Source: Enterobacter phage vB_ExiM_F4M1E. Taken from it: a stretch of 64,000 bases of DNA. Of this stretch, positions 5,046-28,278 are shown piece by piece. The notes under the pieces were generated by a model. The model did no database searches, had not been told where the DNA came from, and was given only the letters and a program-made list of their open reading frames with translations. The first letter of the stretch is position 1; every line of letters starts with the position of its first letter. The stretch lies in the sequence record OL744216.1; one strand, 5' to 3'. A program made the position numbers and the translations under genes.

Positions 5046-5084
5046 AGGGTCTCGATCGAGAAATCAATACTTGAATCGTATTTT
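5046..5084. repeat. isolated copy of bipartite iteron GGGTCTCGATCGA-N15-ATCGTATT
   Basis: same bipartite motif as the three tandem copies at 16.40-16.58 kb; lies in divergent promoter region. Confidence 0.6.
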
Positions 5085-5130
5085 TGTTCATGCTACCTTA
5101 TTGTTCACTAAACATGAACAGGAGAGCACC

Positions 5131-13850: not shown

Positions 13851-14188
13851 GCATCTTTGAAAATATCCGCACACTCGAAGCATCAGCAGAAATTTGCGTG
13901 AAAGACACCCGTCAGTACATCGCTATGCGAGAAGGTGACGCTGAACGTTGGGAACTGGACGCTTTCATCCCACGCATGGATGACAACTGCTTCCACTTTA
14001 CTGAAGCGGTGGAGAAGCTGAACCTGGACAACCCAGTCAATATGCTTCGTTTCATCAAGGCTATCAAGGCGCTGGGTGCGGTTGAGACACTGGAACGTAT
14101 GCAGGAGAGCGAAGAGTTCTCCACCTTCGTAAACATCCGCCTTGAAGGCTGGGTAAACCGTATCACCTCGGAGGCCACAGATGACTAA
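13847..14188 (+). CDS. hypothetical protein (113 aa)
   Basis: ATGA overlap. Confidence 0.5.
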   Translation: MSIFENIRTLEASAEICVKDTRQYIAMREGDAERWELDAFIPRMDDNCFHFTEAVEKLNLDNPVNMLRFIKAIKALGAVETLERMQESEEFSTFVNIRLEGWVNRITSEATDD

Positions 14189-14408
14189 GTTGATCAGTCA
14201 CAAAGAAGCTGGTAAACTCATCAACCGTGCATATGAGTTGACCCGGGCGCACCCTCAGTTACGTGTGGGCCAGAATCTCTGGAACTACGTTAACGAGGAT
14301 TACCCGGACGTGGCAGCGTTGTTTCATGGTGGGGAGCATGACTTCTTCTATCAGCCAAATGCGGCAGTAGCCGTTGAAACATTCCTTATCTATTACGTGG
14401 AGAAATAA
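14181..14408 (+). CDS. hypothetical protein (75 aa)
   Basis: operon context. Confidence 0.45.
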   Translation: MTKLISHKEAGKLINRAYELTRAHPQLRVGQNLWNYVNEDYPDVAALFHGGEHDFFYQPNAAVAVETFLIYYVEK

Positions 14409-14409
14409 A

Positions 14410-14685
14410 ATGAGCATCGACCTGAAAATCACACGCACTATCAGTACCGGGGTAATGTTCTTCGTCCCCCATGACGAAGACCGTTATGACGAAATTGAAA
14501 CCACGATCCTGAATGAGTTTATCGATCTGGATTGCGGGTCTGTCGCGCTTCACGCCGATGATGCTGAGTTCTGTCAGTATTACCTAACTGCCGACATCGA
14601 GGATGAGGAAGAGTTCCACAAGGTGTGCCAGTGGCTCCTGAAGCGCATGGAAGAACTGGGCACCACACTGGATTTCGTATCATGA
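14410..14685 (+). CDS. hypothetical protein (91 aa)
   Basis: ATG 14410 right after upstream stop. Confidence 0.45.
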   Translation: MSIDLKITRTISTGVMFFVPHDEDRYDEIETTILNEFIDLDCGSVALHADDAEFCQYYLTADIEDEEEFHKVCQWLLKRMEELGTTLDFVS

Positions 14686-14909
14686 CAAAGTACGTTTTCT
14701 TGTCCAACATCATGTACAACAGCATGGCTATCCGCCGGGTTCGTTGGTGGCATAAGCTGTTCGGTCATGCAGGAGAGGTTGTCCTTGATTACGTATATGT
14801 AAATCAGGTTGACAATGAGGACGGGTTCCGCAAGGCGGTCATCTACTTCCGTAATCGGGGCCTGGAGGCCCAAGTTATGGGTATGAAAATGCACGAGGGT
14901 ATCGTATGA
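14682..14909 (+). CDS. hypothetical protein (75 aa)
   Basis: ATGA overlap start at 14682. Confidence 0.45.
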   Translation: MTKYVFLSNIMYNSMAIRRVRWWHKLFGHAGEVVLDYVYVNQVDNEDGFRKAVIYFRNRGLEAQVMGMKMHEGIV

Positions 14910-15178
14910 TCTGCTACGACAAATATGGTAAGATGACGCCAGAGTTTCAGGCTTACCAACAAGAGGCTTGGGACAAGCTGCGGGCCATTGCCGGGCAACT
15001 GACGAAGCAAGCCATTGCCAGTGGTGTTTGTCCCAATGCAATGCGGGATACAATGGTCAAGGCTATCGAGTGCGGATGTGTTGTTGCCTGTGCAGAGGTC
15101 TTCGTTGAAGAGAACAAGAAGGATGTGCCCCAGAAAGGCTCTCCTGAGTGGCACATGGGGTTCGTGAACGGACTTTGA
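14906..15178 (+). CDS. hypothetical protein (90 aa)
   Basis: ATGA overlap. Confidence 0.45.
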   Translation: MICYDKYGKMTPEFQAYQQEAWDKLRAIAGQLTKQAIASGVCPNAMRDTMVKAIECGCVVACAEVFVEENKKDVPQKGSPEWHMGFVNGL

Positions 15179-15236
15179 TAAATCATACCGGGAGAGGCTT
15201 GCGCCTCTCCTGATGCGTTACAGGAGCAAATAGAGC

Positions 15237-16097
15237 ATGTCCTCATTTGATGCGGTTTTCTTACACGGTGTTGCTGACTATTCCAAAGGCACCAGCCCAA
15301 CACCCGAGATCCCGGACTGGAAAAATTTACAGCGCCGCCTGTCCGACGTGGAGAGCACCGCCAGGTCAGAGTGGCAGAATAATGATTCAATAGCATCTGA
15401 CATTAAAGATATCGCCAGCGACTTTGATTTCGACTCCTCGCTTGAGGATTTCGTAATCAGGGCAAATGACAAGATAGATCATCTCCACCAAGGTATCCGC
15501 GATGCCAGCTATGATCTCGATACCAACTGGGACCCTGACGCGATGACCCGTGATCAAATGGTGATTTTTGTCGAGAACCTTAAAGATCACCTCCAAGAAT
15601 ACCTTCCCAACTCCCGGCAAATGAAAGAGGTGGCTATGGGTTGGTATGGTTACAACGTTGCCCGGTTTGTTGAGGAGTATCATCCACTGGGCCAAGTGTG
15701 GCTCTGCTACACCCATGATGACACATACATGGGGGATTTGCACGACTCCAAGTTGGGCGACCTTACCATAAAGGCTTGTGCCAATGGTATCTTGAGATTC
15801 ACGACTCAGTGGGTCCCTGGGTATCTTCACTTTACCAGCGACAATAAGATTGTCATGGGTGAACGTGAAGGTAAAGGCAATATCGTCATTAAGGTGGATG
15901 AGTTCAAGACATACTTCGAAGACTGGAGGCGTCCAACAGAAGAGGAGATAGGCTTGTTTGATGTCCTCCACCCGGGGGCGAACTGGTCCGTATTCCGATA
16001 CTTGCGAGACTACGAAGGGAAGAACTACATCTCAAACAAGAAGGTCATCACCACCATACCGACCAGCAGTTTGATATCGGTGAGCACAGCACTGTGA
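15237..16097 (+). CDS. hypothetical protein (286 aa)
   Basis: long ORF, last gene before origin-like region. Confidence 0.55.
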   Translation: MSSFDAVFLHGVADYSKGTSPTPEIPDWKNLQRRLSDVESTARSEWQNNDSIASDIKDIASDFDFDSSLEDFVIRANDKIDHLHQGIRDASYDLDTNWDPDAMTRDQMVIFVENLKDHLQEYLPNSRQMKEVAMGWYGYNVARFVEEYHPLGQVWLCYTHDDTYMGDLHDSKLGDLTIKACANGILRFTTQWVPGYLHFTSDNKIVMGEREGKGNIVIKVDEFKTYFEDWRRPTEEEIGLFDVLHPGANWSVFRYLRDYEGKNYISNKKVITTIPTSSLISVSTAL

Positions 16098-16099
16098 TA

Positions 16100-16360
16100 T
16101 TTGTGAGCTAAGGACGGCTCAGATTTCAGATCGGTTTTCGATTTGATATTTTCGCCTGATATTTGCGTAGATATTTGAAATCAGATTTCAATTCGAAATT
16201 CAATTTGAGATTTGATTTGGGATGGGGCTGCTGACCGGAACCCAGATCTGATTTCTTTTTCAGATTTACTGACCAGTGTATCAAACCGTCTGACCTGTGG
16301 TCAATACCTAATGCATCATAAATGTTACATTAAGGGACTTATGCACCACTAATGGTACAT
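16100..16360. repeat. AT-rich region with reiterated GATTT/AGATTTC short repeats
   Basis: gatttc, gatattt, agatttga repeated >15 times; no ORF. Confidence 0.6.
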
Positions 16361-16402
16361 ATATGTTACAATGCTGGAGTTATCCTCTATCAGAAAATTT
16401 GA

Positions 16403-16582
16403 GGGTCTCGATCGACTTTTCACTTTGCCAATCGTATTCTCTGCCCGGCGGGCGGGGCCGGAGTCTCGGTACAAAAACCGGGGTCTCGATCGGTTTTTCG
16501 ATTTCCAGATCGTATTCTCGATACAGGTACAGGTCTCGCGCCGGGGTCTCGATCGAAAATTCATTTTCGAAAACGTATTCTC
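16403..16582. repeat. three tandem bipartite iterons GGGTCTCGATCG(A)-N15/16-A(T/A)CGTATTCTC (approx 16403-16441, 16481-16519, 16544-16582) plus degenerate copies
   Basis: direct repeats about 70 bp apart; fourth copy at 5046-5084; adjacent to AT-rich tract. Confidence 0.65.
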
Positions 16583-16617
16583 AAAATCTATACAGAGGTT
16601 CAAATCGAAATGCAAAT

Positions 16618-16722
16618 CGTTATCATTCTCACCTCTACCGGGTCGGAGTGAGAATCGTTCTCATTTGCAAATGCAACTAATAATCATTCGCATTCAGCTT
16701 GTTGAATGATAATCATTTTCAT
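16618..16722. promoter_or_regulatory. cluster of Fur-box-like AATCATTCTCAT-type sites (best: GAATGATAATCATTTTCAT approx 16704-16722)
   Basis: 14/16 match to Fur core AATGATAATCATTATC; near-palindrome GAGAATCGTTCTCAT. Confidence 0.4.
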
Positions 16723-16998
16723 CTCCAGAATAGCGGGCAGGTCCGGTGATTGTCTCCGGGTCAATTCTCCCCGCTATGTGTATAATATAACCCAAGCCCG
16801 GCCCGGTTGCAAGCGTCTTTACAGTTCTTTACAAAACTATTTTAGGCGAACTACCGGCGATCCACCTTCCGACCTGGCCCCGGTGCCCGGTACGTTAGCC
16901 CCGCCTTTTCGCCGTGGGGTGGCGTCTCCTCTCCTGTATGTGTACATTATGCACCAGGCCCGGCGGGCCGTCAATACAAAAATCAAAATAAATTTTTC

Positions 16999-17028
16999 TT
17001 GACCTGCCAGGCAAGCCGGGCCACAATG
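16999..17028 (+). promoter_or_regulatory. promoter P1 (TTGACC-N17/18-CACAAT)
   Basis: first of the promoter array. Confidence 0.4.
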
Positions 17029-17057
17029 CAGGCACACCAACAAAAGGAGATCGACCC

Positions 17058-17390
17058 ATGCAACAGACGAAATATTTTATTGAAGGAACAGCCGCCGCCC
17101 ACGCCGGGCAGATCCGCGCCTGCCGCTACAATAAAGAAGAGAACCGCCGCGAATGGTTCGCCGGGTTCGATAGTGTGGATCGTGGTTTCGCCGTGTTTAA
17201 GATCCTCCCTGGCCCCGGCGCTGTTAAGCTGGCTGACCTGGACCCCGTTTATATTGGTGGCGTTAAACAATGCCAGGATCGCGCCGTTACCCTGCAACAG
17301 ACAGACCGCGCCGGGCGCTATGTCATTTATGATATGGCAACGGGCAAGCCGTACCAGGAAAGCACAAAATTAAATTACAAAAATATTTAA
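17058..17390 (+). CDS. hypothetical early-type protein (110 aa)
   Basis: ORF behind P1 with RBS AAAGGAGA. Confidence 0.5.
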   Translation: MQQTKYFIEGTAAAHAGQIRACRYNKEENRREWFAGFDSVDRGFAVFKILPGPGAVKLADLDPVYIGGVKQCQDRAVTLQQTDRAGRYVIYDMATGKPYQESTKLNYKNI

Positions 17391-17399
17391 AATAATGCT

Positions 17400-17428
17400 T
17401 GACGGGGCCGACGATAGGCCCCATAATT
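17400..17428 (+). promoter_or_regulatory. promoter P2 TTGACG-N17-CATAAT, spacer GGGCC..GGCCC dyad
   Basis: consensus hexamers and 17-nt spacer. Confidence 0.6.
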
Positions 17429-17479
17429 CACCACATAGCGACGCACACCGCGCCGCACTAACAAAGAGAGACCGTCATC

Positions 17480-17917
17480 ATGTTACATTCAATCAATAAA
17501 GAGCAAAAACTGTACGTCCTGAAGTGTGGCAACGGCTTTACCTGCTATGGGTTCGAAGTGCTGGACACAAACGCCCGCAAGGTTAAGCAGTGGTTAGAAT
17601 CTGAAGGTGCAACAGTTGAGGATCTGCCATATCGCAAGGGCACAAAGAAGCATTATAAAGCCTGTCAAGATATGATCGCCGCTGGTTGTGCTTATCATGC
17701 CAGAACGGGCAAACGCTGCCTTGCTGGACTCACCAAACAATTAAAGGGCCTGGAGGGTCGCCGGGTAGAAGTGATCACAATGTACGGCGAAAAGCGCCGC
17801 TTTATTGTGGGTCGCTCTACTGGCTGGATGCCTGCCCACCTGGAGATCGCCCGCGCTAACAGTAGCGGCGGCATGAGTGCAGAGCAGCAATATAAATCTG
17901 TAACCATCGTAAAATAA
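17480..17917 (+). CDS. hypothetical protein (145 aa)
   Basis: RBS AAGAGAGA; behind P2. Confidence 0.5.
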   Translation: MLHSINKEQKLYVLKCGNGFTCYGFEVLDTNARKVKQWLESEGATVEDLPYRKGTKKHYKACQDMIAAGCAYHARTGKRCLAGLTKQLKGLEGRRVEVITMYGEKRRFIVGRSTGWMPAHLEIARANSSGGMSAEQQYKSVTIVK

Positions 17918-17930
17918 TTTAAAAAGAGTA

Positions 17931-17959
17931 TTGACACCGGGGCCACCTGGCCCCATAAT
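17931..17959 (+). promoter_or_regulatory. promoter P3 TTGACA-N17-CATAAT (GGGGCC-ACCT-GGCCCC spacer)
   Basis: consensus. Confidence 0.6.
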
Positions 17960-18008
17960 ACAAACAAGCCCGGCAAATGGTGCCCGGCAAAATCAGAGAG
18001 TAAAGAAA

Positions 18009-18230
18009 ATGGCTAAAGTAACCTATAAAAAATCACGTGGCGTCTCCTCTGTTAACCTGGCGGCGGTTGTAACCCTGCCCGCATACCGTACCCGTGACGA
18101 GGCGCGCGCCGTTGCCAGTAAGATCCGCGCCGCTGGCGTGACTCCGACAACGCCAACCAAAACGGCGGACGGCTGGCGCGTTACCGCAAAGCATAACGGC
18201 GGCACACTTTCCCGCAACACTCACCGCTAA
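18009..18230 (+). CDS. hypothetical basic protein (73 aa)
   Basis: ATG 18009 with RBS AGAGAG; Ala/Arg-rich. Confidence 0.45.
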   Translation: MAKVTYKKSRGVSSVNLAAVVTLPAYRTRDEARAVASKIRAAGVTPTTPTKTADGWRVTAKHNGGTLSRNTHR

Positions 18231-18275
18231 CCAATTGCAGGCCCCGCCGGGGGCCTTTTGTGTGGAGTCAGTACC

Positions 18276-18620
18276 ATGACCAAACAGATCTACCATGTAC
18301 CGATCACGCCGCTTTTCCGTTGTCATATCTTTTATGACTGTAATGATCTTGCGGGGCAATGGATCGGCGATACCGATCAACAATATGATTTCCCGGAATG
18401 GGACGAACTAAACCGCCGTGTAAGCAACGCCGCACACAATGCCGATCCTGATAGCCTGGCGGACGTGGAACACTTCCCCGGCGGGGCCGCTTGCTTTCCT
18501 TATATTGAGATCACCGCGCCAACGTGGGCGCTATGTAAAGCGATGGGCGACGCCGTGATCCGTTGCATCCTGGACAATGGCGGGATCGTCGAACCAAAAG
18601 ACAACGGAATAAATATTTAA
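18276..18620 (+). CDS. hypothetical protein (114 aa)
   Basis: RBS GTGGAG; no own promoter, shares P3 transcript. Confidence 0.45.
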   Translation: MTKQIYHVPITPLFRCHIFYDCNDLAGQWIGDTDQQYDFPEWDELNRRVSNAAHNADPDSLADVEHFPGGAACFPYIEITAPTWALCKAMGDAVIRCILDNGGIVEPKDNGINI

Positions 18621-18639
18621 ATTATTTTCGTTTTAGGGG

Positions 18640-18668
18640 TTGACGCCGCCCGGGGTTACCCTCATAAT
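18640..18668 (+). promoter_or_regulatory. promoter P4 TTGACG-N17-CATAAT
   Basis: consensus. Confidence 0.55.
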
Positions 18669-18720
18669 GTACCACATAGGGCGACGGAATAACCCGCCGC
18701 CAAAACCAAAAGGTAACAGT

Positions 18721-18960
18721 ATGCAAACCGTAATGATTAGCCACCCGGATCACGCTTCAGACTTCTACGCCCCGATCTACGCCCCGCTTGATTGGCAACG
18801 CCAGGGCCTGCAAAAAACCGCCACGGGCTATGGCACAAAGATCCCAACGTCCTATATGTTGGACTATCAAGGCAAGCGCCGTCGGATCTACGTTGACCAG
18901 TACAGCAACAGCGGCCACACTTACATCATGATCAAAGGCGAAAAAATTACGGTCTGCTAA
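18721..18960 (+). CDS. hypothetical protein (79 aa)
   Basis: ATG 18721 with RBS AAAGGT. Confidence 0.45.
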   Translation: MQTVMISHPDHASDFYAPIYAPLDWQRQGLQKTATGYGTKIPTSYMLDYQGKRRRIYVDQYSNSGHTYIMIKGEKITVC

Positions 18961-18969
18961 AAATAATTG

Positions 18970-18998
18970 TTGACCGGGGGCCGGAAAGGCCCCATAAT
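18970..18998 (+). promoter_or_regulatory. promoter P5 TTGACC-N17-CATAAT (GGGGCC..GGCCCC)
   Basis: consensus. Confidence 0.6.
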
Positions 18999-19030
18999 AC
19001 CAGACATACCAAACAAACGAGGCTTTACAA

Positions 19031-19261
19031 ATGAATCTGACTACTATCGGCGCTAACCAAACTATGATCACCCTGGCAAATGGCGCACAGGTTTTCTTTT
19101 CCTACAATACCCCGGTTGCGGCATACCTGCCCGGAGAGGGCTACTTGGTGACCGCCACAAAGCACAGCGCCACCACCTCAAAGCATGTTAATGCTTGGGC
19201 TGGCAAAGGTTGCGAGACCCGCCCACAGGAATTTTTTGATAATCTTATCAAATCCGCTTGA
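19031..19261 (+). CDS. hypothetical protein (76 aa)
   Basis: RBS ACGAGG. Confidence 0.5.
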   Translation: MNLTTIGANQTMITLANGAQVFFSYNTPVAAYLPGEGYLVTATKHSATTSKHVNAWAGKGCETRPQEFFDNLIKSA

Positions 19262-19287
19262 CGCTGGTTTCTGCCGGGGTATATAAT
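19258..19287 (+). promoter_or_regulatory. promoter P6 TTGACG-N18-TATAAT
   Basis: consensus; overlaps stop of previous gene. Confidence 0.55.
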
Positions 19288-19339
19288 CCCCGGCATAGGC
19301 AAGCGAAAGCAAACAACCAAACCGAAAGGATACCAAACG

Positions 19340-19720
19340 ATGAATATTTTCAACACTGTAAACGCCGCCGACATCAAAGAAATTTCCGTAACTGGCAAAC
19401 GTTGGTTTCAGCGTAGCTATGGCAACACGTATCACAGCGTAAGCGTCGCCGCCGTGGTATCACGTGAGACAGCCGAAAACTTGGGGGCTAATCCATCCCC
19501 GGCGGGATCTGGCGACGTGTGGATCGACCTGGGTTATGTTGGGTTCGCTTATGGTTATGATCGCGGGTTCGAACAAACCGCCCTGGCTATCCTGATCGAG
19601 GCTGTAAGCGATGCGCCGCAGGACTGGAAACAAAATTCATACGCTTGCCAGGTGGCAACGGCTTTAAATGTGCCTTACTCCGAAAACGTTTATGATGTTA
19701 GCCGCAAAAAGGATTTATAA
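19340..19720 (+). CDS. hypothetical protein (126 aa)
   Basis: RBS GAAAGGA. Confidence 0.5.
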   Translation: MNIFNTVNAADIKEISVTGKRWFQRSYGNTYHSVSVAAVVSRETAENLGANPSPAGSGDVWIDLGYVGFAYGYDRGFEQTALAILIEAVSDAPQDWKQNSYACQVATALNVPYSENVYDVSRKKDL

Positions 19721-19726
19721 TTTAGG

Positions 19727-19756
19727 TTGACACGGGGCCGGGTTAGGCCCCATAAT
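19727..19756 (+). promoter_or_regulatory. promoter P7 TTGACA-N18-CATAAT (GGGGCC..GGCCCC)
   Basis: consensus. Confidence 0.6.
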
Positions 19757-19788
19757 ACCCACAGACCCAAACAAAAGAGTAAAACGCG

Positions 19789-19998
19789 ATGATTAACGAG
19801 CAGCAAGTAAACGACGTAAAACATGAGGCTTATCAGGTGGCGATCCGTAGTGGTTCCCGCGCCGCCTTCAATCTGGTTGTTGAGTTGTACCCTGAACAGG
19901 CGGAAAATATTTTAATGCAGGTTTCCGTATTACTGGAAGCAACAAAGCACACCAAATTAAGCGCCGGGATCGATAAGCTGGCAAAAAGTTTAAAATAG
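19789..19998 (+). CDS. hypothetical protein (69 aa)
   Basis: RBS AAGAGTAA. Confidence 0.45.
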   Translation: MINEQQVNDVKHEAYQVAIRSGSRAAFNLVVELYPEQAENILMQVSVLLEATKHTKLSAGIDKLAKSLK

Positions 19999-20001
19999 TT
20001 G

Positions 20002-20031
20002 TTGACTCTTACCCCGTCCCGCTGGCATAAT
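20002..20031 (+). promoter_or_regulatory. promoter P8 TTGACT-N18-CATAAT
   Basis: consensus. Confidence 0.5.
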
Positions 20032-20086
20032 AGCGGGACTGATTAAGAGAAACACCACACAAACCAAACTAAAGAGAGTAAACATT

Positions 20087-20476
20087 ATGAACGCTAATTA
20101 TGACTTTTCCCAAATGGTTGTCGCATCCTCTACCGATCTGCGTAACTTCCGCAAAGAAAATAACTTTTACAAGGCCGTTCACCTGGTCGGGCTGGTAGAC
20201 GGGGAGATCAAAGATCTGGCGGAGGTTTCATTCTACGGCACCGGGAAAACCAACACGGCTATTTTGTGGATTCACTCCCCGATCCTGTCTCTCTATGGTT
20301 CAAGCGCTGGCAAGGCTGGCGGCTACGGTTACAACCGTGAGGACGCCGCTTTTCAAAGCGCCTTGCGGGGAATGGGGATCAAAAGTACAGGTTACGAATT
20401 GCCACGTGATTTTTTCCCGGCGCTTGCAAAGCATTTAGGGGTTGATGTATACTCAATCATCGAATCACACGGTTAA
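20087..20476 (+). CDS. hypothetical protein (129 aa)
   Basis: RBS AAGAGAG. Confidence 0.5.
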   Translation: MNANYDFSQMVVASSTDLRNFRKENNFYKAVHLVGLVDGEIKDLAEVSFYGTGKTNTAILWIHSPILSLYGSSAGKAGGYGYNREDAAFQSALRGMGIKSTGYELPRDFFPALAKHLGVDVYSIIESHG

Positions 20477-20481
20477 TATGA

Positions 20482-20796
20482 ATGATAACTATTCTCACAA
20501 TGCTGGGACTTGCGGCGGCGGCGATTTACTGCGTCGCTACTTATAAAGCGTCTGTATGGCGAAAGGGTCAAAAAATGTACGGCTATTTTGAATATGAGTA
20601 CAAAGGGGAGAAGGGATCAAGCCGGGACTATGGCGCGATGTTAGAGATCGATATGGTTGGCGCGATGAACTACCGCCAGGAGTTGGGCGCGGTGATCACG
20701 TATGAAGTTTACAAGTCATCTGAGGATGAGATCGGGCAGATAATTGATCAACGTTACTATATGGAACAGCAACAAAACAAACGCCGGAGAAAATGA
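20482..20796 (+). CDS. membrane-anchored hypothetical protein (104 aa)
   Basis: N-terminal TM helix ITILTMLGLAAAAIYCVA. Confidence 0.45.
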   Translation: MITILTMLGLAAAAIYCVATYKASVWRKGQKMYGYFEYEYKGEKGSSRDYGAMLEIDMVGAMNYRQELGAVITYEVYKSSEDEIGQIIDQRYYMEQQQNKRRRK

Positions 20797-20933
20797 GAAT
20801 GATTCACACTAACGAGAACCGCCAAAAGGCACGACCCCGCGCCCGCCTGTCATATGCTGAAGCCGAGGACCGCCTACAGCGTGAAAAGAGCAACAAACAA
20901 CAGCGCCGCAAAACGCGCTATAACTGGGAGTAA
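20793..20933 (+). CDS. small basic protein starting MRMI (46 aa)
   Basis: ATGA overlap; ATGAGAATGATT start shared with ORFs 25938 and 27043. Confidence 0.3.
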   Translation: MRMIHTNENRQKARPRARLSYAEAEDRLQREKSNKQQRRKTRYNWE

Positions 20934-20975
20934 GCGCCCCGGCAGGGAAACACTAGGCCAAACCGTTTAAACCGC

Positions 20976-21006
20976 ACAGGGGGCCTTACAGGCCCCTTAT
21001 TTTTGA
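20976..21006 (+). terminator. intrinsic terminator (AGGGGGCC-TTACA-GGCCCCTTATTTTTG)
   Basis: GC stem plus T-run. Confidence 0.6.
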
Positions 21007-21009
21007 TCT

Positions 21010-21249
21010 ATGGGGTACACAATGCAAAACCTTTACAGCATGACAGAATTTATCCGCCTCCTGGCGGGCCGTCCGATGGGCTTTACCTGCCTTTACTTGG
21101 TAAACGACGGCAAAGGCTACCGGATAACCTCAAAGTCATTAGCCGCCATTGCAGCGCGGGAAGGGGTGAAGATCTCCACCTCTCAGGCGCTCATTGTTGA
21201 CCCGGCGACCGTGGCGACGATTGAGGCGATCCGAGTCACCGTAAAATAA
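21010..21249 (+). CDS. hypothetical protein (79 aa)
   Basis: ORF after terminator; weak RBS. Confidence 0.4.
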   Translation: MGYTMQNLYSMTEFIRLLAGRPMGFTCLYLVNDGKGYRITSKSLAAIAAREGVKISTSQALIVDPATVATIEAIRVTVK

Positions 21250-21272
21250 TTCAAATATTTTCATTCCGGGGC

Positions 21273-21301
21273 TTGACGCCCGGCCCCGGTTCCCCCATAA
21301 T
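21273..21301 (+). promoter_or_regulatory. promoter P9 TTGACG-N17-CATAAT
   Basis: consensus. Confidence 0.55.
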
Positions 21302-21352
21302 ACACCACATAGCGACGCACACCGCGACGCACCAAACAAAAGAGAGTCCGTA

Positions 21353-21772
21353 ATGTCTACTAAAAATCCTTTCCGCATCAAATCAGGTTTATCCGTTTAC
21401 GCACTGGCTTGCGGCTACGTTCAGCAAATCGACACCGAAGTAACCGGGGAAAGTATCCGGGTACAATTGAGAATGGAACACGGCGCGTTTCACGTGCAGG
21501 CGTACAACTTCACCGAACACGGGCGGATCGAATGGGTAGTAGAGGACATGATCGGCGACGCTCGCACACAATGGCAACGCCTTGTAAATCAGATTTTTGG
21601 CGACACCATAAAGGCGACCAAAAAGGATCGCCGCTATACGGTAAATCGTGAGTATCGCGGGGAGAGTGACCCGGCGTATGTGACCCGCTTTTGTGGGGAG
21701 TATGTAGACTACAGCGACACCGCCGCCGCTGGCTGGATTAAGGCCGCAGAACACAAGGCCGGAAAACTTTAA
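21353..21772 (+). CDS. hypothetical protein (139 aa)
   Basis: RBS AAGAGAG. Confidence 0.5.
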   Translation: MSTKNPFRIKSGLSVYALACGYVQQIDTEVTGESIRVQLRMEHGAFHVQAYNFTEHGRIEWVVEDMIGDARTQWQRLVNQIFGDTIKATKKDRRYTVNREYRGESDPAYVTRFCGEYVDYSDTAAAGWIKAAEHKAGKL

Positions 21773-21780
21773 AATAGTTG

Positions 21781-21810
21781 TTGACGCCGGGCACCGTCCC
21801 GGCTTACAAT
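21781..21810 (+). promoter_or_regulatory. promoter P10 TTGACG-N18-TACAAT (CCGGGCACCGTCCCGG dyad)
   Basis: consensus. Confidence 0.55.
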
Positions 21811-21841
21811 ACCCAAACACAAACAAAAGAGAGTCAACACC

Positions 21842-21994
21842 ATGAAACATTATTTAGTAAACATCCCTGGCGTGGCTGGCCCGCTGAAAGTTTACGGCTA
21901 CGACGAACAGGACGCAAGAAAGCGCCTACGTGATCGGGAAGGGTACGGATCACGCCTCCCACGTGGCACAAAACTTTATTTGCAAAACGCTTGA
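21842..21994 (+). CDS. small hypothetical protein (50 aa)
   Basis: RBS AAGAGAG; stop overlaps next promoter -35. Confidence 0.35.
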   Translation: MKHYLVNIPGVAGPLKVYGYDEQDARKRLRDREGYGSRLPRGTKLYLQNA

Positions 21995-22020
21995 CGTGTG
22001 GTTATGCCGTCGCCTACAAT
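21991..22020 (+). promoter_or_regulatory. promoter P11 TTGACG-N18-TACAAT
   Basis: consensus. Confidence 0.5.
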
Positions 22021-22066
22021 TACGGCATAGACAAACGAAAGCAGACAACCAAACGAGGGTTAAATT

Positions 22067-22360
22067 ATGTTTGAAGTATTCGCCGGAATGTGCTTTTATG
22101 CCGCCGCCGCTTTAAAGCAGTGTGATGATTTTGTTGTGGAGTCCTACGACGATCCGCTGACGTGTGAGATCGTGGCGACCGATTACCGCCAGGACACCCG
22201 CTGGATTAACCCGGCTTGTATTCCATCGCCAGAAGTCGAACCGATGCCAGAAGGCGAAGAGATTCAAGATCCTGCCGTGGCTGTTACCTCGTTTTTTGTG
22301 GATAATCTGGACGCCGCCGCGCTGGTCCAAATGTACGCAAGCCAGGAGGCCGCACAATGA
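22067..22360 (+). CDS. acidic hypothetical protein (97 aa)
   Basis: RBS ACGAGGG. Confidence 0.5.
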   Translation: MFEVFAGMCFYAAAALKQCDDFVVESYDDPLTCEIVATDYRQDTRWINPACIPSPEVEPMPEGEEIQDPAVAVTSFFVDNLDAAALVQMYASQEAAQ

Positions 22361-22500
22361 ACCACAGCCGCAACATTGCAAAGCGCCGCCGCCCTAATTC
22401 CAGCGCCGCCAATGATGAGCGCCGGATCGCTGGTTTCATCGCTTGCGGCTACACCGTACAGCAGGCCCGGCAAATGGTAAAAGCAAAAGGCAGAAAATAA
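22357..22500 (+). CDS. small basic protein (47 aa)
   Basis: ATGA overlap; Arg-rich. Confidence 0.3.
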   Translation: MNHSRNIAKRRRPNSSAANDERRIAGFIACGYTVQQARQMVKAKGRK

Positions 22501-22503
22501 TTG

Positions 22504-22533
22504 TTGACACCGGGCACCGTCCCGGCTTATAAT
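22504..22533 (+). promoter_or_regulatory. promoter P12 TTGACA-N18-TATAAT
   Basis: near-identical to P10 and P13. Confidence 0.6.
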
Positions 22534-22571
22534 TCAGCTACACCAAACAAAACAGGCAAACGAGGCCACAA

Positions 22572-22751
22572 ATGAAATCATCCTTACTTTTCGCCCTGGT
22601 AGACATAGTGATCGGCAATGGTTGCGGTCAACATACCTTCATTGCAAACCGTCCCTATCCGCTCAAATCGTTGCAGGCCGACGCCCGCCTAACCGCCGGG
22701 CAGATCCGCCGCTACTTTCGTGAACCACACCCGGCAAAAACTGCAAAATAA
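22572..22751 (+). CDS. small hypothetical protein (59 aa)
   Basis: RBS ACGAGG. Confidence 0.35.
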   Translation: MKSSLLFALVDIVIGNGCGQHTFIANRPYPLKSLQADARLTAGQIRRYFREPHPAKTAK

Positions 22752-22754
22752 TTG

Positions 22755-22784
22755 TTGACGCCGGGCACCGCCCCGGCTTATAAT
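22755..22784 (+). promoter_or_regulatory. promoter P13 TTGACG-N18-TATAAT
   Basis: consensus. Confidence 0.6.
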
Positions 22785-22814
22785 TACCGAACACAAACAA
22801 ACGAGGCTACAAAA

Positions 22815-23114
22815 ATGCAACAGGCAAACACTCTTTTCATTCTGGCAAACGTAGCGGATCACGTTGTGGCGTCACTGTCCAACGTGGCGGGCACCGTGCA
22901 GATCATTTGCCGCCATATGGATGACACCGCGCCGAACCGCCTACAAATCAACGTAGACCGTAAAGGGGCCGACTTTGTGATCTCTTATGATGCCATTTAC
23001 AACGGGCGGCGCTTTATGCAGGCCAAAAGCGACCCGATCCCGGCTAACTACATTCAGGAGGCGATCGCCGTCCTGGTAAACGACACTATCCCGGCGGGGG
23101 CTATGTTACCATGA
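22815..23114 (+). CDS. hypothetical protein (99 aa)
   Basis: ATG 22815 with RBS ACGAGG. Confidence 0.5.
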   Translation: MQQANTLFILANVADHVVASLSNVAGTVQIICRHMDDTAPNRLQINVDRKGADFVISYDAIYNGRRFMQAKSDPIPANYIQEAIAVLVNDTIPAGAMLP

Positions 23115-23266
23115 ATCCGCATAAACTTTTAATCACCGCCTACCCAAACAAGGCGGATCGCCGTGAAACTTTGGACCGCTTAACCCTGTATTATCAGGAG
23201 GCCGGGCACAGTAAAGCGACGGCCCGCGCCTTGGCTAAAAAACGTTTACGTTTTGGTAAAAATTAG
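23111..23266 (+). CDS. small hypothetical protein (51 aa)
   Basis: ATGA overlap. Confidence 0.3.
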   Translation: MNPHKLLITAYPNKADRRETLDRLTLYYQEAGHSKATARALAKKRLRFGKN

Positions 23267-23267
23267 C

Positions 23268-23296
23268 TTGACGCCCGGCCCGAAAGGGCCGATAAT
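23268..23296 (+). promoter_or_regulatory. promoter P14 TTGACG-N17-GATAAT (GGCCC-GAAA-GGGCC)
   Basis: consensus. Confidence 0.55.
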
Positions 23297-23342
23297 CTCT
23301 CACATAGGGCGGGGAATGGTTCCCCGCATTATCTAAGAGGTT

Positions 23343-23501
23343 ATGAATATGTTTACTTTGATGACTTGGGAACACGAATCAAGCGCCCCTGTCCGCCGGA
23401 CCTTTGAAAACTTATGCGCCGCTTATCGCCTGGCGCAAGGCGGTTACTATAAAGCCCAAATCATCGACGAAAATAATATTGTAATGTACGAATTTAAATG
23501 A
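23343..23501 (+). CDS. small hypothetical protein (52 aa)
   Basis: RBS AAGAGG. Confidence 0.35.
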   Translation: MNMFTLMTWEHESSAPVRRTFENLCAAYRLAQGGYYKAQIIDENNIVMYEFK

Positions 23502-23530
23502 TTGACATCCGGCCCGAAAGGGCCGATAAT
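23502..23530 (+). promoter_or_regulatory. promoter P15 TTGACA-N17-GATAAT
   Basis: consensus. Confidence 0.55.
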
Positions 23531-23566
23531 GACCCCACACCAAACAAAAGAGAGAGAGACCGTAAA

Positions 23567-23773
23567 ATGATTACTATGATTCTTCAAAAGTCCCGCCTGA
23601 TTGATGTTACCGTTACCCTGTCCGCTTGCGGTGACACGTCCCGCCGGGCCGATCATTACCAGGTGACCGCTGTTAGTGATCGCGGCGCTGTCCTGCTGTC
23701 TGAAGTAACAGAGCATTTGCACGAGGCTTTTAAAACCTATTCAAAGTGGAAAGGCGACGAAGAAATAAAATAA
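23567..23773 (+). CDS. hypothetical protein (68 aa)
   Basis: RBS AAGAGAGAGAG. Confidence 0.45.
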   Translation: MITMILQKSRLIDVTVTLSACGDTSRRADHYQVTAVSDRGAVLLSEVTEHLHEAFKTYSKWKGDEEIK

Positions 23774-23781
23774 AAATCCGC

Positions 23782-23811
23782 TTGACGCCGGGGCCACGTT
23801 GGCCCCATAAT
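23782..23811 (+). promoter_or_regulatory. promoter P16 TTGACG-N18-CATAAT
   Basis: consensus. Confidence 0.6.
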
Positions 23812-23845
23812 GCCACCACACCAAACGAATAAAGAGAATCACAAA

Positions 23846-24100
23846 ATGTTAAAATTCATCAAATCACTTTTCACCCGCACCACCCCGGCTTGCAAGTTGC
23901 CACCCCTGGAGGCTAAAGGCGTGATCGCTCGCAAAGTCTCAGAATTGTTTATCATTTCATTGGTTCACAACGGCGGAGACTGTTACGAAATCATCGAAAT
24001 GGGCCGCTACACTAAAACAGGGTCAAGCCGTGTCCGTTACGGTGAACACCGCGCCCGGAATCATTTTGATTCTGTATGCTGTATGGTGGGTGCAAAATAA
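23846..24100 (+). CDS. hypothetical protein (84 aa)
   Basis: RBS AAAGAGAA. Confidence 0.45.
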   Translation: MLKFIKSLFTRTTPACKLPPLEAKGVIARKVSELFIISLVHNGGDCYEIIEMGRYTKTGSSRVRYGEHRARNHFDSVCCMVGAK

Positions 24101-24103
24101 ACC

Positions 24104-24132
24104 TTGACGGGGCCAACGTTAGGCCCCATAAT
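24104..24132 (+). promoter_or_regulatory. promoter P17 TTGACG-N17-CATAAT
   Basis: consensus. Confidence 0.6.
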
Positions 24133-24184
24133 GTAACACATAGGGCGACACAACGCCGCCCACAAACAGAAAAGAGATCGTAAA

Positions 24185-24544
24185 ATGAGCAAATACACCC
24201 CGTGGGAACCAATGTACAAAATCACCCTGTCCGAGTGCAGCAAAAACGAACTGGATGGAATTGTCCGCGCCGCTACTGCCGTGATCCGTGGGCTTAACTT
24301 CAAACGTTTAACCTTCAAAGAAGTAAAACAAATTTTTGAAATGCCGGATCACAAGGCCGCTTCCCGCTTGGGGCTTACTGTAACATCGCAAGGGCTTTAC
24401 AAAGATCACGACCTTAAAGGGCCGCACGTGTGGCTTTTAGCTTGCGCCGTGGGCCGCACCATTGCCGACACTATCAAAGAGATGAAAGCGCTACGCGATG
24501 ACGCAAAAGCCCGCCGGGCCGCGCTGGAAGTGGCACAAAAATAA
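24185..24544 (+). CDS. hypothetical protein (119 aa)
   Basis: RBS AAAGAGA. Confidence 0.5.
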   Translation: MSKYTPWEPMYKITLSECSKNELDGIVRAATAVIRGLNFKRLTFKEVKQIFEMPDHKAASRLGLTVTSQGLYKDHDLKGPHVWLLACAVGRTIADTIKEMKALRDDAKARRAALEVAQK

Positions 24545-24557
24545 TTTAAAAATAAAG

Positions 24558-24587
24558 TTGACGCCGGGAAGCGTTACGGGCTATACT
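24558..24587 (+). promoter_or_regulatory. promoter P18 TTGACG-N18-TATACT
   Basis: consensus. Confidence 0.5.
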
Positions 24588-24635
24588 CTTTTCATCGGGT
24601 CACAACAGACCAAAACAAACAAAGAGAGAAACAAA

Positions 24636-24713
24636 ATGAGCGTAATCTTCCTGGTATCTGTTTTCGTAGCTATCGCATCTTCTACCGCAATTTGTATCAA
24701 ACTGGGATACTAA
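24636..24713 (+). CDS. small hydrophobic peptide (25 aa)
   Basis: RBS AAGAGAGA; single TM helix; leader-like. Confidence 0.3.
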   Translation: MSVIFLVSVFVAIASSTAICIKLGY

Positions 24714-24717
24714 TAAA

Positions 24718-25110
24718 ATGACTACTTTCAACGTTTTAAACTTAAACGCTTTTATCGCGGGTTACATTGAGGCAATGTTTTTTGCAGAGTCCGCCACCGA
24801 TAGCGACGGCGAAGAAATCGAAAGTTTAGCCGGGTATGAGTTAAGCGCTGAAGCCCTGGACGCTGCCCGCATGGATTGCGCCCGCTTTATGGATGTTGCG
24901 CCGCTGTTACTCAAAGGGGCAATGTTGGCAGGGGTTGACTACGACCACACCCAGGCAGGCCGGGATCTATGGTTTAGCCGTCAAGGTCACGGCGTAGGAT
25001 TCTGGGATCGCGGACTTGGGACGATCGGTGATAAACTTCACGACGTGGCGCAGACTTTCGGATCAAAAAATCTGTTTATCAATGATGCTGGATTTATTGA
25101 GGTAGAATAA
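24718..25110 (+). CDS. hypothetical protein (130 aa)
   Basis: ORF in array. Confidence 0.5.
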   Translation: MTTFNVLNLNAFIAGYIEAMFFAESATDSDGEEIESLAGYELSAEALDAARMDCARFMDVAPLLLKGAMLAGVDYDHTQAGRDLWFSRQGHGVGFWDRGLGTIGDKLHDVAQTFGSKNLFINDAGFIEVE

Positions 25111-25571
25111 TGAACCTTACAGATCTGAAGTATTACGATGAATTAACCCCAGCGGCGCAAGCTGAAGCCCGGCGCAACGTTGCCGCCAGTGTGCAGACTC
25201 ACCACGGGCGGGAAATCGGAAAGGCGTTTTTTAAATTCCAGCGGGACCCAAACAAGGCGATCAATGACCCGCTACACATCCGCCGGATCGTCAACGGCGG
25301 CGAAGCGTGGCGCAAGATCCGCCAGGAGGGCGACGCCTATCTAATCCGCTTTATCCGGTCCAATAAAGTGATCTTTACTGATTGCGGTGCGTATGTGGCG
25401 TATGTGGACGCCTTCACAATGTTTATTGATGGGTTGGAATACATACCCACAGCCGAACAGCAAAAGACGCTTAGAACGCCTTACATCGACGTTAACGGGC
25501 GCGGCCCGGCGTTTCATAATTGGCTATACCGTATGCACCACAAAATAAAGTTTTTCATGATCCGGGGTTGA
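25110..25571 (+). CDS. hypothetical protein (153 aa)
   Basis: TAATG overlap with upstream. Confidence 0.5.
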   Translation: MNLTDLKYYDELTPAAQAEARRNVAASVQTHHGREIGKAFFKFQRDPNKAINDPLHIRRIVNGGEAWRKIRQEGDAYLIRFIRSNKVIFTDCGAYVAYVDAFTMFIDGLEYIPTAEQQKTLRTPYIDVNGRGPAFHNWLYRMHHKIKFFMIRG

Positions 25572-25596
25572 CACCCGGCGGAATAGGGCCGATAAT
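25568..25596 (+). promoter_or_regulatory. promoter P19 TTGACA-N17-GATAAT
   Basis: consensus. Confidence 0.5.
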
Positions 25597-25649
25597 GTCT
25601 CTCATAGGGCGGGGAATGGTCCCCGGCCCAATGACCTGGAGTCAGTACA

Positions 25650-25901
25650 ATGGAAATCAAACACGTAATTTCTGCAAACGTCGCCGTTTTAGGTTCTGTA
25701 AGTGAAACCCGTGTGAGTCTCGCTAAATGGTGCGCCGCTCAAACTTTCGGGAGTTACGGCGAAAAGGTAACAGAGGTTAAGCGCTTGCTTTCCTTTGGTA
25801 ACGTGGGCCGCAAGTTGTTAACAGAGGATATCGCCCGCCGGGTTGAGATCCATTATTCACTTGCTCAAATCATCGTAAAAGAGATCGAAAGCGTAATTTA
25901 A
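25650..25901 (+). CDS. hypothetical protein (83 aa)
   Basis: RBS GGAG. Confidence 0.45.
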   Translation: MEIKHVISANVAVLGSVSETRVSLAKWCAAQTFGSYGEKVTEVKRLLSFGNVGRKLLTEDIARRVEIHYSLAQIIVKEIESVI

Positions 25902-25937
25902 CCCGGCCCGGCCCCGCAAGGGGCCAACAGAGGACAA

Positions 25938-26162
25938 ATGAGAATGATTATCAAAAACACTTTGGGCAAAACTGATTTTCTGCGCTCGCTGGAGATCGGC
26001 AAGCCGCAAGCCTGGTATTGTAAAAAGCTGGCGCATGATGAAATGAAAGATTTTACAGCCACGTTAACCCGCGTTAAAATCAGCATTACCCAAAAGAAAG
26101 CGCTTTTAGTGATTGAGGGGCAGATCCCGCAAACCGTGATCATTGTTGAGAGGACCGCATAA
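25938..26162 (+). CDS. hypothetical protein starting MRMI (74 aa)
   Basis: Fur-like ATGAGAATGATTATC spans start codon. Confidence 0.45.
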   Translation: MRMIIKNTLGKTDFLRSLEIGKPQAWYCKKLAHDEMKDFTATLTRVKISITQKKALLVIEGQIPQTVIIVERTA

Positions 26163-26163
26163 A

Positions 26164-26388
26164 ATGGGGGCCAATACTCGCAACCGCTACGGCATAACGC
26201 GCCGTTTCGGGGTCTGCTATATGCTGGCAGATGATCCACAATATCGGGCCTTGCTGGAGGCTTACCAGGTCACCAAACTGGACGCCCAAAAGGGCCGGGC
26301 CGAACACGACGCCCACACCGCCAACATTAAAGCGCTTCACGACTTTTTAGCCGTCGCGGAAAAGCGTCACGACATCCGCCACAATTGA
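26164..26388 (+). CDS. hypothetical protein (74 aa)
   Basis: ATG 26164 2 nt after upstream stop. Confidence 0.45.
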   Translation: MGANTRNRYGITRRFGVCYMLADDPQYRALLEAYQVTKLDAQKGRAEHDAHTANIKALHDFLAVAEKRHDIRHN

Positions 26389-26398
26389 GGGCCGAACC

Positions 26399-26593
26399 AT
26401 GATCACAGCTTCAGAGATCCGCCAAACGTTAGCCGCCTTGCGTTACCTCCACGCCTTACGCCGGGAAAGTGATCCGACTTATGCCGGGTCATGCCTGGCT
26501 AACGATGCCGAAAACGGGATCGCCACACTGAAAGAATTAAATGATCGCATGAGCGACAGCGACCGATCCGACTTTATCGGGGGCGAAATATGA
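26399..26593 (+). CDS. hypothetical protein (64 aa)
   Basis: ORF in array. Confidence 0.4.
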   Translation: MITASEIRQTLAALRYLHALRRESDPTYAGSCLANDAENGIATLKELNDRMSDSDRSDFIGGEI

Positions 26594-26898
26594 TCGCCAT
26601 TACGCCAACCGTTTTAGATTGGTATCGCCAGCAGATCGCGCCGCCGCTGGCTATCTTCAAACAGGCCGAAAGCAAACAGCGCCGGATCTCCATTCATGAG
26701 ATCATTACGCTTAACGCTGGGCAGAAAATGAATGTTTCCCGGTCCCATATGGGCAACACGTTAGCGCTTTTAAGTTTACGCCGCAAGCGTCAACGGTTAA
26801 CCCTGGAATCACTCCGCATGATGGGACAGCCGCACCAGGTCACCGGGGACAGGATCGCCAGGGCATGGAACCGGGCAAACAGTCGAAAGGCTGGATGA
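26590..26898 (+). CDS. hypothetical protein (102 aa)
   Basis: ATGA overlap. Confidence 0.45.
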   Translation: MIAITPTVLDWYRQQIAPPLAIFKQAESKQRRISIHEIITLNAGQKMNVSRSHMGNTLALLSLRRKRQRLTLESLRMMGQPHQVTGDRIARAWNRANSRKAG

Positions 26899-27307
26899 AT
26901 TAACAGTGTTCACAGGGGTTGACTTGTTCGCCCCTTTTTTGTTATCCTTTTGTCATGCGATGGCACCTGATGCAGGGGGAGACAAACACCGGACCTGCCC
27001 GCTATTCAGGGAGGCGGACCGGACCTGGGCCGCGCCGGGCAAATGAGAATGGTTATCATTCCCAACAAAATCAAATACATACTTTAAAACCGTTGTCAAA
27101 TTTATTTCTTACCCCTGTATAAATGTACATGCCCGCCAAACGCTCTAAAACGCGTTTTAAGCCGTTTTGCCCTTCCCCGGTATCCTACACCATAAAAATA
27201 TAGATCGCCCGAAATCGGACTTTCGCACTTTTTGTCCTTGCAAACGTGAAATTTTTATGTTAGGCCTGAAGGGCTGAAAGCCGGGTGTACGTTGACAAAA
27301 CTTTACA

Positions 27308-27336
27308 AAACTCCCTATTGACGCCCGGCCCGTTAT
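27308..27336 (+). promoter_or_regulatory. promoter P20 TTGACG-N17-GATAAT
   Basis: consensus; preceded by CTTTACAAAACT motif also found at 16.82 kb. Confidence 0.55.
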
Positions 27337-27398
27337 CCCTGATAATGTATCTCGTAGGGCGGCAATGATGCGACGGCCCACAAAGAGGGGACAGTAAA

Positions 27399-27638: not shown

Positions 27639-27641
27639 ATG

Positions 27642-27670: not shown

Positions 27671-27715
27671 ACCCACTCAAGCAACAAACCACTAAAAACA
27701 CTGGAGACCGTAAAA

Positions 27716-28275: not shown

Positions 28276-28278
28276 AGA

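Follow-up and report, generated by a model that had tools for sequence, protein, structure and literature searches.

A conserved triple array of bipartite repeats in a gene-free module of rV5-like phages: probable protein-binding sites and a candidate component of a replication origin

Among the closest described systems to the element reported here are replication origins in which a single protein recognises a repeated site. The origin of phage lambda has four O-protein repeats beside an AT-rich region, phage P4 carries gp-alpha sites at ori and at crr, 4.5 kb apart, and phage SPP1 has G38P boxes at two distant loci, oriL and oriR; the P4 and SPP1 sites are composite boxes beside AT-rich DNA. 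We analysed a stretch of 64,000 nucleotides (the window) from Enterobacter phage vB_ExiM_F4M1E (record OL744216.1), an rV5-like myophage of the genus Certrevirus, subfamily Vequintavirinae. In a gene-free part of the window lie three tandem copies of a bipartite repeat, with a fourth copy at 5.05 kb on a pair of divergent promoters, a placement that resembles initiator autoregulation in iteron plasmids. The three repeats very probably constitute a binding-site array for one sequence-specific DNA-binding protein. Their most likely function, put forward tentatively, is as part of a transcription-activated replication origin. Searches of the literature available to us found neither the repeat motif nor a replication origin described for these phages.

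The repeat is defined by box A, GGGTCTCGATCG, which occurs exactly four times in the window (at 5047, 16403, 16481 and 16544), always on the plus strand, against an expected count of 0.008 under a uniform model of both strands. When two mismatches were allowed the search returned 7 matches versus 5.4 expected, which is not above chance, and the signal therefore resides in the four exact copies. Each box A is followed after exactly 18 nt by box B, CGTATTCTC in the tandem copies and CGTATTTTT at 5047, and box B starts with CGTATT in all four, giving a unit of 39 bp. A first-pass annotation of this DNA had described three tandem bipartite copies with a fourth at a distance, identical in their internal spacing and set about 70 bp apart; the copies are confirmed, but the distance between tandem units is not constant, being 78 and 63 bp. 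Within each unit the conserved positions fall into three patches, GGnnCTCGATC(G), an invariant TC and A(T/A)CGTATT, and since these are about one helical turn apart we infer that a protein or oligomer would contact one face of the DNA over approximately 39 bp. Box A contains the palindrome TCTCGATCGAGA, which is perfect in the copy at 5047. Of the two degenerate extra copies of box A in the array, the one at 16461 reads GGGTCTCGATAG in Klebsiella phage KaOmega.

The distribution of the motif was followed first in KaOmega, which is 93% identical to positions 14000-19000 over their full length (other Certrevirus phages, 82-90%). In its complete 149-kb genome the bipartite motif is present at two orthologous loci only, always on the plus strand, so that it does not represent a general class of promoter; the random scatter that the first-pass annotation had named as the outcome that would speak against it was not found. 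The triple array is in place in CR9, CR3, PBES02, DU_PP_I, P7_Pc, PcCB7V and POP15, and in phiTE and CB7 box B survives in unit 3 only. Three copies in one orientation are also found in Mydovirus (KB57), Seunavirus (4MG, GAP31, SPLA5a) and Vequintavirus (rV5 and the BASEL phages), with spacings of 78/63 bp in Certrevirus, 74/66 bp in KB57, 76/67 bp in Seunavirus and 65/52 bp in rV5. Most Seunavirus and Mydovirus records have three matching places and a few have two, which makes the remote fourth copy peculiar to Certrevirus. Searches of IMG/VR returned one unrelated contig for the exact pattern and, among the matches listed for a looser pattern, single chance matches only.

A logo built from 33 units of 11 phages reads cgGG.tCTCGATCga.tttTCa.tttc.a.AtCGTATT.Tc, with 1.81 bits per column in box A and 1.70 in box B versus 1.10 in the linker, which includes the invariant TC, and 0.47 in the flanks. 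In the sister subfamily Stephanstirmvirinae (phAPEC8, phi92) the array position is occupied by three copies of an unrelated repeat, TTATTTAAAGTTTTT...GAAAATGAAAAGTTCAA, in a module that is otherwise homologous. Sites that co-evolve with the protein binding them would be expected to show this, a triple repeat that differs between lineages while its position stays fixed. Each genome has one such locus (and, in Certrevirus, the remote copy), the boxes are conserved whereas the linkers vary, copy number and orientation are fixed, and the sister subfamily has its different triple repeat; all of this argues for a protein-binding array, as does the failure of the units to read as promoters, as coding sequence or as any known RNA. 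The proposal that the array serves a phage DNA-binding protein is thus well supported, and the cognate protein is probably phage-encoded.

One alternative to a dedicated binding array is that the units are themselves promoters: three in tandem, and one at 5.05 kb, each with box B (TATTCT) as the -10 element and with box A as an activator site replacing the -35 element, as in the middle promoters of T4 MotA or Mu Mor, and together driving a rightward non-coding transcript and a gene block. All four copies do point toward downstream genes, TATTCT and TATTTT fit TAnnnT, and the ATG at 5131 lies 46 nt beyond the end of the 5047 copy. However, a sigma-70 scan finds no promoter in the array units, none is annotated there in the GenBank record of rV5, and rV5-type phages have GAATTT or GGATTT as box B, without TAnnnT. 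There are only one or two such loci per 149-kb genome, the 500 bp or so after the array contain no open reading frame (ORF), and the array is faced by a pair of opposing promoters, of which one is of the early type; at 5.05 kb a conserved TTG(A/C)AT-N17-TAyyTT promoter is better placed, with box B merely in its spacer. As a set, the units do not display the attributes of a promoter class, namely TAnnnT, a downstream gene or RNA and association with many genes of one temporal class, and we regard this explanation as improbable.

The remote copy occupies a 124-bp gap between a leftward gene (ATG at 5007) and a rightward gene (ATG at 5131), and this agrees with its earlier placement in a divergent promoter region. 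The leftward promoter consists of -35 TTGATT (5067-5062) and -10 TATATT (5044-5039) with box A as its 17-nt spacer, and the rightward promoter of -35 TTGAAT (5071-5076) and -10 TACCTT (5094-5099) with a spacer that begins with box B. Both -35 hexamers fall inside the linker of the unit, and the array units have no such hexamers. The promoters of this gap (5008-5130) are conserved in KaOmega, CR3, POP15 and phiTE as leftward TTGATT-N17-TATA(T/G)T and rightward TTG(A/C)AT-N17-TAyyTT, and they head both the rightward block and the leftward one, which contains the helicase, primase and DNA polymerase genes. A protein bound at this unit would, judging from the layout of the hexamers, cover both promoters. 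The suggestion that the array protein also regulates them fits the geometry very well, with boxes in both spacers. The copy is confined to Certrevirus. In KaOmega the annotated start of the HD-phosphohydrolase gene is a TTG corresponding to 5071, which falls within the promoter; translation more likely begins at the ATG at 5131, which follows AGGAG.

The array lies in a gene-free stretch of 960 bp (16098-17057) bounded by the homologues of KaOmega gp145 and gp146, which are plus-strand genes. From left to right the module comprises the stop codon of the upstream gene, GATATTT repeats, the three units, Fur-like palindromes, a hairpin-forming element, the leftward promoter P2(-), two copies of TGTAAAGA, a core with invariant runs of more than 20 nt and a second leftward promoter, P1(-). 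The whole module is retained in four Vequintavirinae genera (Certrevirus, Mydovirus, Seunavirus and Vequintavirus), and its core and Fur-like boxes are also present in Stephanstirmvirinae (phAPEC8, nieznany, phi92). A coding reading of the ORF at 16706-17002 (98 aa), and of the small ORFs annotated here in other records, was rejected because cross-genus alignments contain indels of lengths not divisible by three and show no codon periodicity in their conservation. No genes for transfer RNA or transfer-messenger RNA were found, and Rfam gave no match at gathering score, only chance-level ones of microRNA type (E up to 10). No IHF consensus is present in the region, and GATC, the Dam site, occurs 6 times versus 3.3 expected, without notable enrichment.

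To the left of the array, GC content falls to 37% in 16100-16270 versus 50% for the whole window, and GATTT occurs there 7 times versus 0.2 expected, a count reached in 0 of 5000 shuffles; an AT-rich, GATTT-rich tract had been described earlier and is borne out. It is one of the most GC-poor stretches of the window, although 42.9-43.1 kb is poorer still. GATATTT copies at 16145, 16158 and 16170 are spaced 12-13 bp apart, with a fourth at 16096, and GATATTT triplets with 13-bp spacing stand just after the upstream gene in KB57, 4MG, GAP31, SPLA5a and rV5 as well. The tract may serve as an unwinding element or provide secondary binding sites. It had been placed immediately before the repeats, but about 130 bp separate its end from unit 1, and this interval contains three TGnTACAnT extended -10-like elements that are possible rightward promoters reading into the array.

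To the right of the array, the Fur-box-like sites that had been noticed there prove to be four palindromes, of which the best, TGATAATCATTTTCA, matches 15 of 19 positions of the Fur consensus. They are at the same place in all relatives compared. In the 64 kb as a whole such palindromes form 12 sites, all confined to the early-gene block (16606-29225): 16649, 16707, 20483, 20794, 25939, 27044, 27503, 28608, 29082, 29123, 29158 and 29206. Five of the palindromes overlap start codons of small ORFs (ATGAGAATGATT...), and arrays of the same palindrome are also found in phi92, phAPEC8 and the injection-stop region of T5-type phages. They could be recognised by host Fur or by a phage protein such as a repressor, or could act as translational operators.

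The outer helix of the hairpin-forming element that follows the Fur-like boxes is paired in 92% of alignment cells, with little covariation. A module of GGAGACAAnCACCGG...CTGCCCGCTATTC and, after it, a Fur-like box occurs twice in the window (16730-16777, minus strand; approximately 26975-27060, plus strand), in opposite orientations and about 10 kb apart, and rV5-type phages have two copies side by side. The invariant runs of the core extend across Certrevirus, Mydovirus, Seunavirus and Stephanstirmvirinae. One helix in the core shows a GC-to-AU compensatory change (92.8% of cells paired, 2 covarying pairs), and we did not call an RNA structure because covariation is too sparse; the core is nonetheless a candidate early non-coding RNA.

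A transcript through the module would raise the alternative that the repeats act at the RNA level, as protein-binding or antisense modules of a non-coding transcript (an antitoxin mimic or a sponge RNA). Promoters on both strands would transcribe the array, and the related phage phiTE encodes a repeat RNA, pseudo-ToxI (PMC3475682). The pseudo-ToxI locus is elsewhere, however (phiTE 106,714-106,772), and the window has no ToxI-like repeat. The units are not head-to-tail and their spacers differ, no Rfam family matches them, and the remote copy is situated in promoter DNA. A hairpin around unit 2 is not retained in CR3, and no conserved hairpin includes the boxes. We accordingly give a role in RNA only a slim chance. 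The AT-rich GATTT tract was considered separately as a pseudo-ToxI antitoxin mimic and rejected, given the position of the phiTE locus and the lack of a ToxI-like 36-mer in the window.

The position of the module in the transcription map is distinctive. Between 17399 and 27642 there are 24 near-identical strong rightward early promoters, each with an AAAA-rich upstream tract, TTGACG, a GC-rich palindromic spacer and CATAAT, a design that agrees with the promoter described for Certrevirus (PMC7344957); nearly every small early gene in this interval has its own. In 5-16 kb only four sigma-70-type matches were found, none of this design, and the gene-free gap is therefore the left border of the early region. 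P1(-) is of the same design as the 24 early promoters, but it faces left, and its transcripts would run across the core, the Fur-like boxes and the array toward the AT-rich tract.

These observations can also be accommodated by a transcriptional control or boundary element, in which a phage or host regulator bound to the three sites blocks or times transcription with no role in replication. Such an element would mark the border of the 5-16 kb block and the early block, stopping leftward transcripts from P1(-) and P2(-) or rightward read-through, and at 5.05 kb its regulator would act as a repressor or switch of the divergent promoters. The array is exactly where the dense series of early promoters begins, it stands between converging promoter-like elements (16323-16372 on the plus strand; P1(-) and P2(-)), the remote copy is positioned to occlude both divergent promoters, and the palindrome in box A is of a kind used by dimeric regulators. 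On the other hand, the units are direct repeats with three asymmetric patches instead of simple palindromic operators, and the array is conserved outside Certrevirus although the remote promoter copy is absent there. Further, the genes upstream of the array are all dispensable in the rV5-like phage Bas54, and a mere insulator would therefore be unlikely to make the region near-essential. A boundary function is the main rival to an origin, and we consider it somewhat less likely.

The evidence from Bas54 (Escherichia phage MaxBurger, MZ501093) comes from a saturating transposon mutagenesis in which 146 genes were dispensable (2025 preprint, doi 10.1101/2025.11.20.689424). We confirmed the mapping of genes to coordinates by counting TA sites per ORF, which (21, 3, 11, 15, 14 and 13) match the published table exactly. 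The ORFs bas54_0100 to bas54_0102 ("hypothetical protein", 81475-82064) overlap the non-coding array, an AT-rich stretch and the Fur-like box and hairpin module, and are probably not genes. Insertions are few in this stretch compared with the flanking genes (Table 1), mean reads being 5 in bas54_0100 versus about 200 in its neighbours (doi 10.1101/2025.11.20.689424), which indicates that the homologous non-coding stretch of Bas54 is close to essential.

Intolerance of insertions at a unique cis-acting repeat locus would also be expected of a packaging (pac) site, at which the small terminase binds the repeats to begin headful packaging, and neither a small terminase gene nor a pac site is known for these phages. 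However, the read depth of CB7 is flat and its BAL-31 behaviour is T4-like, indicating fully permuted ends with no preferred start; moreover, the terminase gene is about 80 kb from the locus, and the locus is within the early-gene region. A packaging site is, in our view, highly improbable.

Taken together, several features favour a replication origin: iteron-like direct repeats at one locus, an AT-rich tract with 13-mer-like repeats, early promoters aimed at both, a near-essential homologous stretch and an extra site on the promoters of replication genes. In the model that we propose, the iteron-like repeats would assemble an initiator, while P1(-), of early type, and P2(-), of sigma-70 type, would transcribe through the Fur-like boxes and the array toward the GATATTT tract. 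This leftward transcription may help the AT-rich tract to open or may supply a primer, as at oriF and oriG of T4 and at the origins of T7 and lambda. The protein would in Certrevirus also act on the 5.05-kb promoters and so control both the leftward block of replication genes and the rightward block. The analysis establishes the motif statistics, the restriction to one locus, the conservation centred on the boxes, the geometry of the promoters and the insertion intolerance of a relative; protein binding, the nature and source of the protein, origin activity and a part played by transcription are deduced from these.

Several results weigh against this model. Spacing between units is irregular, varies between genera and keeps no helical phase, and some 230 bp lie between the AT-rich repeats and unit 1. 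As for the initiator, the upstream gene (phrog_12463) gave no Pfam hit or fold match, and Pfam scans of 17 neighbouring ORFs detected no DNA-binding domain. The region contains one exact DnaA box, without enrichment. Cumulative GC skew, which the first-pass annotation had proposed as a check, follows gene orientation in KaOmega, with minima at 68 kb and 140 kb, and has no origin-type inflection at 79.7 kb, the array locus. The Bas54 evidence comes from another genus with only 3 TA sites in the array proper, and insertion intolerance would equally fit an essential RNA or regulatory element. Finally, a second intergenic region of Bas54, of about 2.5 kb, received zero insertions (doi 10.1101/2025.11.20.689424) and is a competing candidate for the origin. 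This region (92785-95298) is probably the homologue of window positions 28380-29830, a second large gene-free region at a convergent gene junction, which we likewise regard as a contender for an essential cis-acting element, for instance an origin. It contains approximately seven Fur-like boxes, three GATATTT, other repeats and an 18-nt perfect inverted repeat (28711-28728 and 28801-28818).

The iteron-type origin proposed by the first-pass annotation therefore stands in part. Like such origins, the locus has at least three direct repeats in one orientation (three units and two degenerate half boxes in 16403-16582), and the AT-rich tract, the promoters directed toward the array and the near-essentiality in Bas54 speak for it. 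Iteron origins have units of 17-22 bp at regular helical spacing, however, and the units here are 39 bp and irregularly spaced; because unit size and phasing fail, we do not file the array as a member of that class.

Table 1. Features of the array, the surrounding module and the remote copy (window coordinates), and ORFs of the homologous region of Bas54 (Bas54 coordinates)
Feature	Position	Strand	Basis or remark
Remote fourth unit, box B CGTATTTTT	5047..5085	+	Within back-to-back divergent sigma-70-type promoters
AT-rich tract; GATATTT at 16096/16145/16158/16170, 7x GATTT	16096..16270	+	Composition, repeat counts
Extended -10-like elements TGTTACATT, TGGTACATA, TGTTACAAT	16323..16372	+	Read from sequence, repeat family
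Bipartite unit 1, GGGTCTCGATCG-N18-CGTATTCTC	16403..16441	+	Exact motif search
Degenerate extra box A GAGTCTCGGTAC	16461..16472	+	GTCTCG core; 20 bp upstream of unit 2
Bipartite unit 2	16481..16519	+	Exact motif search
Degenerate extra box A AGGTCTCGCGCC	16531..16542	+	GTCTCG core; 13 bp upstream of unit 3
Bipartite unit 3	16544..16582	+	Exact motif search
Four Fur-box-like palindromes (TGAnAATnATTnTCA type)	16606-16630, 16649-16663, 16673-16691, 16702-16721		Repeat search, consensus match
Hairpin-forming element ATAGCGGG...CCGG-N9-CCGG...CCCGCTAT	16730..16777	-	Directly downstream of P2(-)
Leftward promoter P2(-), TTGCAA-N17-TATATT	16784..16812	-	Retained in all genera compared
Non-coding core, >20-nt invariant runs across two subfamilies	16816..16940	-	Would be transcribed from P1(-)
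Leftward early-type promoter P1(-), TTGACG, GC-rich palindromic spacer, CATAAT	16946..16974	-	Promoter scan
bas54_0099, upstream gene	80848-81180		18/21 TA sites hit; Non-essential
bas54_0100, array units 1, 2 and start of 3	81475-81621		1/3 TA sites hit; NA (too few sites)
bas54_0101, end of unit 3 and next 105 bp	81627-81731		0/11 TA sites hit; Essential
bas54_0102, Fur-like boxes, hairpins	81786-82064		5/15 TA sites hit; Strong fitness defect
bas54_0103, next gene	82201-82377		12/14 TA sites hit; Intermediate
bas54_0104, next gene	82463-82660		13/13 TA sites hit; Non-essential

A bolder extension of the origin model, which we offer as speculation and think doubtful, is that the gene-free module of about 1 kb is an essential replication and control hub of all rV5-like phages, composed of three kinds of part. 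These would be a lineage-specific triple repeat bound by a fast-evolving initiator, host-type Fur boxes shared through horizontal exchange with the injection-stop region of T5, and a structured RNA, transcribed leftward early in infection, by which initiation is primed or licensed. If this were so, replication of the phage DNA would be tied to a host iron-sensing factor.

Phages of the rV5-like group, the Vequintavirinae and their relatives, are often considered for therapy and biocontrol. The present analysis pins down a compact, conserved, single-locus cis element whose homologue GenBank annotates as tiny hypothetical ORFs. The element is a defined target for phage engineering: it shows which DNA to avoid when cargo is placed and what a minimal replicon would have to include. 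Should the origin model be wrong, the array would still be the recognition site of a phage DNA-binding protein that is also placed on the promoters of the replication-gene block.

Among known systems, iteron origins (RK2 oriV, pSC101 and P1 oriR, and lambda ori) are similar in having several direct repeats of one site in the same orientation, an AT-rich tract nearby with short 13-mer-like repeats and, in an arrangement reminiscent of autoregulation, an extra copy of the site in a promoter. Lambda ori in addition depends on nearby transcription, as we propose for the array. Unlike the sites of these origins, the unit here is tripartite and 39 bp long instead of 17-22 bp, its spacing of 52-78 bp is unphased, the AT-rich tract is about 230 bp away, and there is no recognisable initiator gene of Rep, O or DnaA type near the array. 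The ori and crr of P4 and the oriL and oriR of SPP1 share with this locus the occurrence of one repeat clustered in tandem and again kilobases away; in contrast to both, there is just one remote copy here, within promoters and restricted to Certrevirus, the other genera having the triple array only.

The oriF(uvsY) and oriG(34) origins of T4 and the primary origin of T7 consist of a promoter with an unwinding element downstream of it and are primed by an R-loop or a transcript. They are similar in that promoters are aimed at an AT-rich element in a non-coding stretch, in a large lytic phage whose early transcription relies on host RNA polymerase. These origins have no iteron array between promoter and unwinding element, however, and those of T4 are individually dispensable, whereas the homologous region looks near-essential in Bas54. 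The last parallel is with 'repeat region 3' of T5, the injection-stop (iss) region, which is also a large, essential, gene-free region with nested repeats. It differs in containing paired DnaA boxes and repeats of its own instead of the CTCGATC...CGTATT unit, and the ends of T5 DNA are fixed and its injection proceeds in two steps, in contrast to the circularly permuted genomes of Certrevirus. The two regions share arrays of Fur-like palindromes, with 75-80% nucleotide identity over about 70 nt between window positions 16652-16722 and part of 'repeat region 3' (322-1221) of the T5-like Escherichia phage OSYSP, in which the injection-stop signal is found together with paired DnaA boxes and GTGCGAATCCGACA repeats. 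This similarity suggests that a non-coding module has been exchanged between unrelated families of lytic phages.

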